The notes: generated by a model not told the origin, from the sequence alone. A stretch of 62,661 bases of DNA from Planctomycetota bacterium (GCA_038059695.1 JBBTIZ010000004.1:1-62661); one strand, 5' to 3'; positions 44,237 through 44,490 are shown, numbered from the stretch's first letter. Made by a program: numbers and translations.

Positions 44237-44490
44237 ATGCCACCCTATCCCCTATGGGGGGATACCCTATTGGGGGAGAGACCATACCCTATCCCCCCTC
44301 CCCCTATACCCTATGGCGGGGTCCACTATACCCTATCCTGCCTGACCCTATATCCCATAGGGTGGAGGACTATACCCTATCCCCCCTCCCACTATACCCT
44401 ATAGGGGAATCCACTATACCCTATCCATGCTCACCCTATATCCTATGGGGTGGGGGACTATACCCTATCCCCGCCACCCGGATAGGGTGG
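44237..44490. repeat. Tandem array of 11 units of 22 bp with core (A/C)CTATACCCTAT
   Basis: Unit starts 44237 to 44457 every 22 bp; 10-nt tails alternate C-rich and G-rich; inverted ATAGGGT at the end. Confidence 0.9.

Follow-up and report, generated by a model that had tools for sequence, protein, structure and literature searches.

A two-helical-turn tandem array beside a Type IIG restriction-modification gene in a groundwater planctomycete, and the lineage-wide class of putative protein-binding arrays to which it belongs

The window analyzed here is a 62,661-nucleotide stretch of DNA from a metagenome-assembled genome of a groundwater planctomycete (G000; 1.27 Mb in 92 contigs, 55% complete). 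The feature under study is a non-coding tandem array of 11 units in exact 22-bp phase, which occupies positions 44238..44479 of the plus strand between the gene of an FG-GAP protein and the gene of a Type IIG restriction-modification (RM) enzyme (44554..47346, plus strand; HSDR_N-type nuclease, Eco57I/MmeI-type methylase, and TaqI_C by Pfam). An exact-protein look-up of the FG-GAP neighbor found nothing. To the right of the array, an AT-rich spacer of 63 bp (44491..44553, plus strand) forms the left junction of a low-G+C island that holds the RM gene, as seen in the window profile and in 100-bp bins of G+C. To the left, the array adjoins a T-poor mosaic of short dispersed modules (43895..44239, plus strand; 345 bp, almost T-free) composed of 27-29-mers and others, e.g., CTACTGCGAACTCCGCAGAGACC and GTGTCCCCAGATTAC, pieces of which recur at dozens of sites in this genome and in the related genomes G001, G002, and G005, some with 100% identity; one module forms a perfect 27-bp tandem of four copies beside 21-bp arrays in G001 (C1 12080-12189). 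Beyond the mosaic lies a hairpin-ended element of ~84 bp (43811-43894; GCCCCGTTAGAAAG ... CTTTCTAACGGGGC), of which other contigs and relatives carry numerous diverged copies and which is probably a member of the small hairpin-ended mobile elements of this genome.

Each unit of the array consists of an 11-bp core (consensus CTATACCCTAT; in degenerate form, (C/G)(T/C/G)ATACCCTAT) followed by a tail that measures 11 nt in the unit tables, rather than the 10 nt given in the first-pass annotation. Cores matching the consensus were found at 44260, 44282, and onward in 22-bp steps to 44458 without an indel, and a degenerate first unit starting at 44238 brings the total to 11, in agreement with the 11-unit, 22-bp array that had been annotated. 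Because G-rich and C-rich tails alternate throughout, in all units and without exception, 44 bp is the true unit of the array and 88 bp is a higher-order repeat, the 88-bp block being duplicated about 2.5 times. Tandem Repeats Finder (TRF) recovered both of these super-periods, which had likewise been noticed at the outset, reporting 44262-44479 at period 44 (5.0 copies, score 217) and 44275-44472 at period 88 (2.2 copies, 88% matches, score 301). The array is enclosed by inverted 11-mers, as the left boundary motif CCACCCTATCC (44240..44250, plus strand, read directly) returns in inverted form as GGATAGGGTGG at 44480-44490. The right boundary motif, GGATAGGGTGGTA (44480..44492, plus strand), is a G-run module of the kind found beside other 22-bp arrays, and a sequence resembling it, TAGGGTGGTAGATA, stands at the head of the window's first array. 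The start of the array at the left motif is kept in G001 and in the contigs L135 and L165 despite differing upstream flanks, and the right motif is likewise retained where the array stops in G001 and L165.

The array is not an assembly artifact, because the same sequence is present in independent assemblies from Hainich well H41: contig L017 is identical to the window over 43722-44810, L018 matches it without mismatch, and the Logan contigs L019 and L020 begin within the array and agree with its sequence. Copy number is the same in four assemblies of one aquifer. The array had no match in E. coli, in a collection of 72,556 plasmids, or in phage collections, and the region had none in Rfam. A coding repeat was rejected, given that 22 is not a multiple of 3, that no substantial ORF spans the array, and that neither the 94-aa ORF across it nor the adjoining ORFs matched a Pfam family. 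A CRISPR array was rejected as well, since 11-bp cores and tails recurring at 44 and 88 bp differ from repeats of 23-50 bp with unique spacers; no cas domains were found in the ten flanking-region proteins scanned.

The transition from array to RM gene is abrupt in composition, with G+C dropping from 0.51-0.57 to 0.30 in the 100-bp bin after the array end; the array itself has a G+C of 0.57, the RM island 0.30-0.40, and the genome a mean of 0.49. The Type IIG gene is foreign and horizontally acquired. Its closest relatives among species-representative genomes are in WOR-3 MAGs (47-67% identity) and have no upstream array, and there is none upstream of its paralog on contig C45 either. At its 5' end the gene reads ATA AAA CTG ACC (ATA at 44554-44556) where the C45 paralog reads ATG AAA CTG ACC, and an out-of-frame ATG at 44531 opens an ORF of 8 codons only. 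The ATA was found in four independent assemblies, and the gene is therefore either a start-codon mutant or a poor initiator. Insertion of a 23-nt unit into the 5' end was rejected, as the comparison with C45 comes down to a simple ATG-to-ATA difference at 44554. A phase-variable simple-sequence repeat of 1-7 nt was also rejected, the unit being 22 bp, located outside the ORF, and identical in sequence in four independent assemblies. The first-pass annotation had placed the array directly upstream of the Type IIG promoter; the array does end 63 bp before 44554, but the plus strand of the intervening DNA yielded no sigma-70-like promoter.

Proximity of arrays to RM genes is not peculiar to this locus. 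Among the nine methylase/RM loci found in the G000 assembly, four lie within 500 bp of an array, compared with 7.2% of genes (p=0.003), and seven lie within 1.6 kb, compared with 13% of genes (p=1.8e-5), so that the enrichment near RM genes suspected from the two arrays of the window was borne out. A neighboring gene in the lowest decile of G+C was found at 13 of 29 array gaps and at 32 of the 282 remaining gaps that measure 150 bp or more (odds ratio 6.3, p=2.8e-5), and the neighbors of arrays include a ThsB-type TIR protein, an MmeI-type methylase, and a PD-(D/E)XK nuclease. A separate element of 375 bp is present in three copies that are 86-90% identical and contain 4-5 units of TGTATATCAGCCGTGCGTATGT (C23 47042-47416, C84 11738-12110, and C37 5440-5796); two of these copies end ~30-35 bp before the first gene of different RM operons, one in which a small gene stands ahead of a Type III-like Mod gene and the other bearing an MmeI-type methylase.

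Such proximity could mean that the array is a dedicated control element of the Type IIG gene, i.e., an upstream operator or UP-like array, or a copy-number switch, by which RM expression is set or made phase-variable. The distance of 63 bp to the RM start position, the two RM operons preceded at 30-35 bp by an array element, and the enrichment of RM loci near arrays are what such a role predicts. We nevertheless hold this to be very unlikely, as the array family occurs in G001 and L165 without an adjoining RM gene, the C45 paralog and the WOR-3 homologs of the RM gene are devoid of an upstream array, and the array, with its host-like G+C, differs from the RM island. Copy number is moreover identical in the four assemblies from one aquifer, the core is oriented away from the RM gene, the spacer offers no promoter-like site, and the RM gene itself carries ATA for ATG. 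We conclude that the arrays, or the gaps containing them, serve as favored junctions for imported defense cassettes and do not form part of individual RM systems, and for this reason the array is not a dedicated RM device.

TRF was run over the whole of G000, with arrays counted if they were at least 60 bp long and with the multiples 44, 66, and 88 included in the 22-bp class. This yielded 32 arrays with a period of 22 bp and 22 with a period of 21 bp, 54 in total and typically of 5-20 units, in a period spectrum that contained none at 20 bp and one at 23 bp. All of the 22-bp arrays and nearly all of the 21-bp arrays are intergenic, and their unit sequences fall into 24 and 19 families, respectively, that are less than 75% identical to one another. 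Similar arrays were found in G001 (same genus; 20 of the 22-bp class and 7 of the 21-bp class in the 400 kb sampled), G004 (same family; in 200 kb, five with a 22-bp period, five with a 21-bp period, and one with a 42-bp period), and G012 (same order; 6 of 22 bp and 2 of 21 bp in 200 kb), with a density among relatives of the same order of about one per 15-25 kb. None were detected in the sampled parts of G023, G024, and G056 (100 kb and 77 kb from two other families of the class, and 200 kb from another planctomycete), and on this limited sampling the array class is limited to the order. The occurrence of two arrays at RM loci in one window had been called unexpected, a judgment that the 54 arrays of the assembly, which stand beside all kinds of genes, do not sustain; two 22-bp arrays in one window are what the array density of the genome predicts. 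The other of the pair is a sibling array of ~13 units (17722..18011, plus strand, by TRF and its units; core GCTTAACC...GCAACA) that lies 91 bp after a Type III res gene and is followed by a sigma-70-like promoter and an HTH_17-Peptidase_S24 gene (18181-18756). A literature search found no published description of such a class, which has apparently gone undescribed so far.

Although the families are mostly unrelated in sequence, some vocabulary is common to them. The pentamer TACCC (GGGTA on the other strand) is present in 8 of the 24 families of 22-bp arrays in G000, where about 1 was expected, and in 10 of the 36 from G001, G004, and G012, where about 2 were expected; it is present in none of the 21-bp arrays. 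The window array belongs to this TACCC subclass, and other arrays with the ATACCCTAT core exist in G002, G004, G005, and G009. Tracts of G or C runs such as GGGGGGTAGGTAGGGTGGTAG stand at one end of most 22-bp arrays, and the words of these tracts (CCCTAT, C-runs, GGGTGG) lie inside the units of the window array. The genes that flank arrays have no family in common, and array orientation by G/C skew followed no consistent rule relative to neighboring genes. Of the 29 gaps that bear arrays, 8 are convergent, and arrays are found in gaps with promoters, too. Several contigs, two Logan contigs among them, have an end that falls within an array. The 21-bp arrays form composite clusters in which two or three different arrays drawn from a few families stand in a row (in G000, C17 16697-17205, C37 4651-5275, C39 813-1353, C40 19890-20304, and C84 58514-58822); their cores, (G/A)ATGACTGA and GCAGTTGTGTAT/GTTATAC, are without TACCC and without G-quadruplex-capable flanks, and T-poor modules adjoin them.

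A candidate for a protein partner of the arrays comes from the genes that stand next to them. Over four genomes, 14 of 24 HTH_17 genes are immediately preceded by a 22-bp array (G000 3/3, G001 5/6, G004 5/10, and G012 1/5), against a chance rate of roughly 5-9% as estimated from array density; the three genes in G000 that pass the Pfam cut-off are C4 18181, C11 40091, and C25 1849. The array-linked proteins comprise several subfamilies, in which HTH_17 is combined with a C-terminal domain of unknown family, occurs as a double or triple domain, is joined to Zn_ribbon_IS1595, or is joined to Peptidase_S24. A profile of the HTH domain searched against the PDB matched Xis of mycobacteriophage Pukovnik (4J2N, E=5e-7), RacA (5I41), and BldC (6AMK/6AMA), all at E<=1e-5. 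Related cores go with the same subfamily across genera, namely GGTGTAG with triple-HTH proteins and GGGTA in three arrays of Zn-ribbon-HTH_17 genes, and the unit upstream of the Zn-ribbon-HTH_17 gene L107, CAGGGTATATAGGGTG, is near the core of the window array. Cores of the triple-HTH type also occur in G001 in "orphan" arrays distant from the gene, as binding in trans would predict. The orientation of GGGTAT is on the coding strand of the downstream gene in arrays upstream of HTH_17 genes, and in the window array it points away from the RM gene. The Zn-ribbon-HTH_17 subfamily, which fits the core best, was not found in G000, at 55% completeness. With three HTH_17 genes for 24 array families in G000, one-to-one recognition is impossible unless the proteins have broad specificity or genes are missing.

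Three proteins of the Zn-ribbon subfamily (L094 and L108 in G001 and L107 in G004) are ~300 aa long and combine the zinc ribbon of an IS1595-type transposase with HTH_17, without a DDE catalytic domain by Pfam, and immediately before each gene stands a 22-bp array of 12-19 units whose core contains GGGTA. The proteins have the look of domesticated DNA-binding modules of transposases.

The DNA of the window array has relatives in 7 of 61 related genomes, and within the same array family the number of units is 11 in the window, 5 in G001, and 14 each in L135 and L165, which are contigs from the same aquifer with flanks unrelated to those of the window. The G001 copy has the same ends, comes directly after a 701-aa ORF (a helicase, if its translation alone is a guide), and is followed by a 21-bp array and further 22-bp arrays; its 926-aa neighbor differs from the Type IIG RM gene, and synteny between G000 and G001 around the array was not established, the G001 neighbors being absent from G000. 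G-rich tails alternate with C-rich ones in each of the four copies (window, G001, L135, and L165). When the window and L135 were compared unit by unit, differences stood at 5 of the 121 positions in cores and at 25 of the 121 in tails (Fisher p=1.3e-4), with three of the five core differences falling in the degenerate boundary unit, and over 42 units from the four genomes, positions 3-11 of the core were conserved at 85-100% versus 35-66% for tail positions. The core of the array changes about five times more slowly than the tails. A further comparison is provided by orthologous arrays on C68 (G000) and C10 (G001), which retain ACAAGGTAGT...GTAACC between flanking DNA that is 72-80% identical and in which other positions have been fixed differently across each species' array, a pattern of concerted evolution. 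The array family is free in copy number and fixed in phase, and its core is constrained. A pattern scan of metagenomes returned 98 matches, mostly unrelated heptamer (7/14-bp) arrays, with the true relatives being Hainich contigs only. These CCCTATA/TATACCC heptamer arrays, of up to ~68 copies and from Antarctic-lake and other metagenomes (L121-L192, e.g., L180, L191, and L192), have the word CCCTATAC in common with the window array and are an STRR-like class, not relatives of it.

Arrays with these properties might be functionless. A lineage-specific habit of slippage or recombination could expand 21/22-bp duplications in dispensable intergenic DNA, making the arrays neutral or selfish minisatellites, and arrays and foreign islands would then cluster because both accumulate where insertions are tolerated. 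Copy number that varies freely among relatives (5, 11, 14, and 14 units) accords with this explanation, as do the 44/88-bp blocks and the concerted evolution, which are typical of unequal exchange, the placement of arrays beside all kinds of genes and in gaps of every orientation, the mostly unrelated unit sequences, and the crowding of the same gaps with other short repeat modules. It accounts poorly, however, for a period restricted to 21 and 22 bp, i.e., two helical turns, for a core conserved some five-fold better than the tail, also across species, for a TACCC core common to ~30% of families in several genomes, for the strong and specific link of arrays to HTH_17 genes and G-run tracts, and for the persistence of arrays at orthologous loci despite an identity of only 72-80% between the flanking genes. 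We regard it as an unlikely explanation.

The G-rich strand of the array is the minus strand, on which the core reads (A/G)GGGTAT and which by regex count bears 19 runs of at least three G over 44240..44490, together with two non-overlapping canonical G-quadruplex (G4) motifs (four runs of at least three G with loops of 1-7 nt); the plus strand has 8 such runs and no G4 motif. The abundance of minus-strand G-runs reported in the first-pass annotation was therefore matched by a positive G4 prediction. Its serial hairpins did not hold up, as RNA folding was slightly better than in shuffled sequences for the plus strand (z -2.5) and no better for the minus strand (z -0.4), and adjacent tails showed no specific complementarity. 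Neighboring tails are partly complementary, as had been stated, in the generic sense that one is G-rich and the next C-rich, but their pairing is no better than that of permuted tails, equaling this control within a few percent over 37 neighbor pairs (18 G-to-C and 19 C-to-G, from four genomes, in all registers, with Watson-Crick and either wobble rule). A structured non-coding RNA was rejected on the weak fold z-scores, the lack of tail pairing, and the lack of an Rfam family. Across G000, a canonical G4 motif lies within 120 bp of 9 of 32 22-bp arrays, 0 of 22 21-bp arrays, and 7 of 277 array-free gaps, and it lies inside an array in 1 of the 32. G4 potential is real at the level of motifs and no property of the arrays as a class.

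These motifs raise the possibility that the array is a structure-forming recombination or boundary element, in which a G4, an i-motif, or hairpins stall polymerases or start recombination and so lead to the swapping of cassettes at array gaps, much as a G4 reportedly triggers pilin gene conversion in Neisseria. Apart from the motifs and G-runs of the minus strand and the G4-capable flanks of 22-bp arrays, this suggestion draws on the position of arrays at G+C junctions and beside RM loci, on the flanks of the window array family, which differ on both sides in every genome, and on the scarcity of tyrosine recombinases: there are just two in the G000 assembly, which makes site-specific integration by such enzymes unlikely and would leave cassette exchange to homologous or structure-triggered recombination. 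Yet a motif found inside a single array in 32 cannot explain the arrays themselves, the fold scores are modest at best, the tails lack adjacency-specific pairing, and the conserved non-G core and strict 22-bp phase are left without an explanation. We think it rather improbable that structure formation is what the array is for.

Among characterized systems, the operators of HTH_17 proteins are of particular relevance. On a 22-mer, BldC binds as a head-to-tail dimer, and it assembles into filaments where the direct-repeat site is longer (PMC5859096); recombination directionality factors have binding sites made up of direct repeats at a spacing of one helical turn (PMC7498355); and RdfS, which forms superhelical filaments, has been grouped with BldC and Pukovnik Xis as HTH_17 proteins (PMC11963761). 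Like the arrays, the operators of Streptomyces BldC and of Xis/Apl/RdfS are tandem direct repeats phased by whole turns, and the window array, with a 22-bp period of about two turns and no indels, has this arrangement. The known sites have 2-6 repeats of 9-11 bp, whereas the arrays here have 5-20 units of 22 bp; unlike those operators, the arrays, as candidate sites, number ~50-180 per genome, most of which, including that of the window, have no cognate gene nearby. No HTH_17 or other DNA-binding gene was found beside the window array or its relatives in G001, L135, L165, G002, G004, G005, and G009; sibling arrays, at 14 of 24 HTH_17 genes, do have one adjoining.

Plasmid iterons are also 22 bp in the R6K gamma origin and in pPS10. 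They resemble the array in period, in the combination of a conserved core with a variable remainder, and in direct orientation, and the array falls within the iteron pattern of tandem direct repeats of ~17-22 bp in constant phase. They differ in that the arrays are dozens of unrelated sequences on chromosomal contigs, with no initiator gene and no plasmid context, and an iteron origin was rejected on the lack of a cognate Rep gene in the flanks and of plasmid or phage similarity. BOX elements of Streptococcus pneumoniae and REP/BIME of enterobacteria are, like the arrays, multi-copy, modular, intergenic, non-coding, and often located at gene 3' ends, and in some of the present families the internal units, variable in number, are enclosed by a conserved leader and trailer; unlike these palindromes, the array units are direct repeats with a period fixed at 21/22 bp despite unrelated sequences. 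The Borg elements of Methanoperedens also contain many unrelated tandem arrays per genome, intergenic or genic and with fast-evolving copy number. Borg repeats are near-perfect and of many different unit lengths, in contrast to the arrays, whose period is restricted to two helical turns and whose units pair a conserved core with a drifting tail.

Our preferred reading, to which we assign a probability of roughly 0.5, is that the array is a phased protein-binding platform of the host, belonging to a lineage-wide class, with a foreign RM cassette beside it. Phased binding sites, which were among the possibilities listed in the first-pass annotation, best fit the strict 22-bp phase and the retention of the core while the tails drift. 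The class consists of tandem arrays, non-coding and with a period equal to two helical turns (22 bp), that punctuate the intergenic DNA of an order of small-genome groundwater Planctomycetota. In the proposed mechanism, a sequence-specific protein would recognize the conserved 11-bp core (TATACCCTAT; (A/G)GGGTAT on the opposite strand) every two turns, and because of this spacing all copies of the core would lie on one face of the helix, allowing the bound protein to polymerize along ~240 bp. The best candidate binders are the winged-helix proteins of the HTH_17 group (Xis, RdfS, BldC, and RacA), which oligomerize head-to-tail on direct repeats; since none is encoded beside the window array, its binder would act in trans. 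Binding might establish a boundary or insulator or control a neighboring promoter, although the eight convergent gaps among 29 mean that a simple operator role does not fit all arrays. In this reading the array is host DNA and the AT-rich Type IIG cassette was inserted immediately at its end. The window array is a local instance of an element found genome-wide and no RM-specific invention. Core binding alone does not explain why the alternation of tails is kept across species.

A more far-reaching version, which we offer as a speculation with the odds well against it, is that the order runs a chromosome-wide system of ~100-200 phased 22-bp arrays in which paralogous Xis/BldC-like HTH_17 proteins (single, double, triple, Zn-ribbon-fused, and LexA-fused) each read their own core and polymerize, the arrays acting as "punctuation marks" that bound transcription units and as favored docking or exchange points for imported defense cassettes such as the Type IIG system. 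If true, this would be a new kind of bacterial chromatin and organizer of defense islands. Should the arrays bind proteins at all, they would supply dozens of orthogonal pairs of core and binder, a natural library constructed on a single two-helical-turn ruler, and they would be a new example of how horizontally acquired defense genes are organized and insulated. The strong association of arrays with RM loci (seven of nine within 1.6 kb) and the G+C junction right behind the array point to a testable rule for the sites at which these genomes take in defense cassettes. Short-read assemblies also break at arrays, and recognizing them should improve the recovery of genomes of uncultured groundwater bacteria. 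One further array of the 22-bp class, on the Hainich contig L197 (2802-3130), follows a short ATACCC-type array and has a unit containing TTGACAATATCAC, a perfect -35 hexamer in every unit; it may be a series of promoter-like or operator-like sites.
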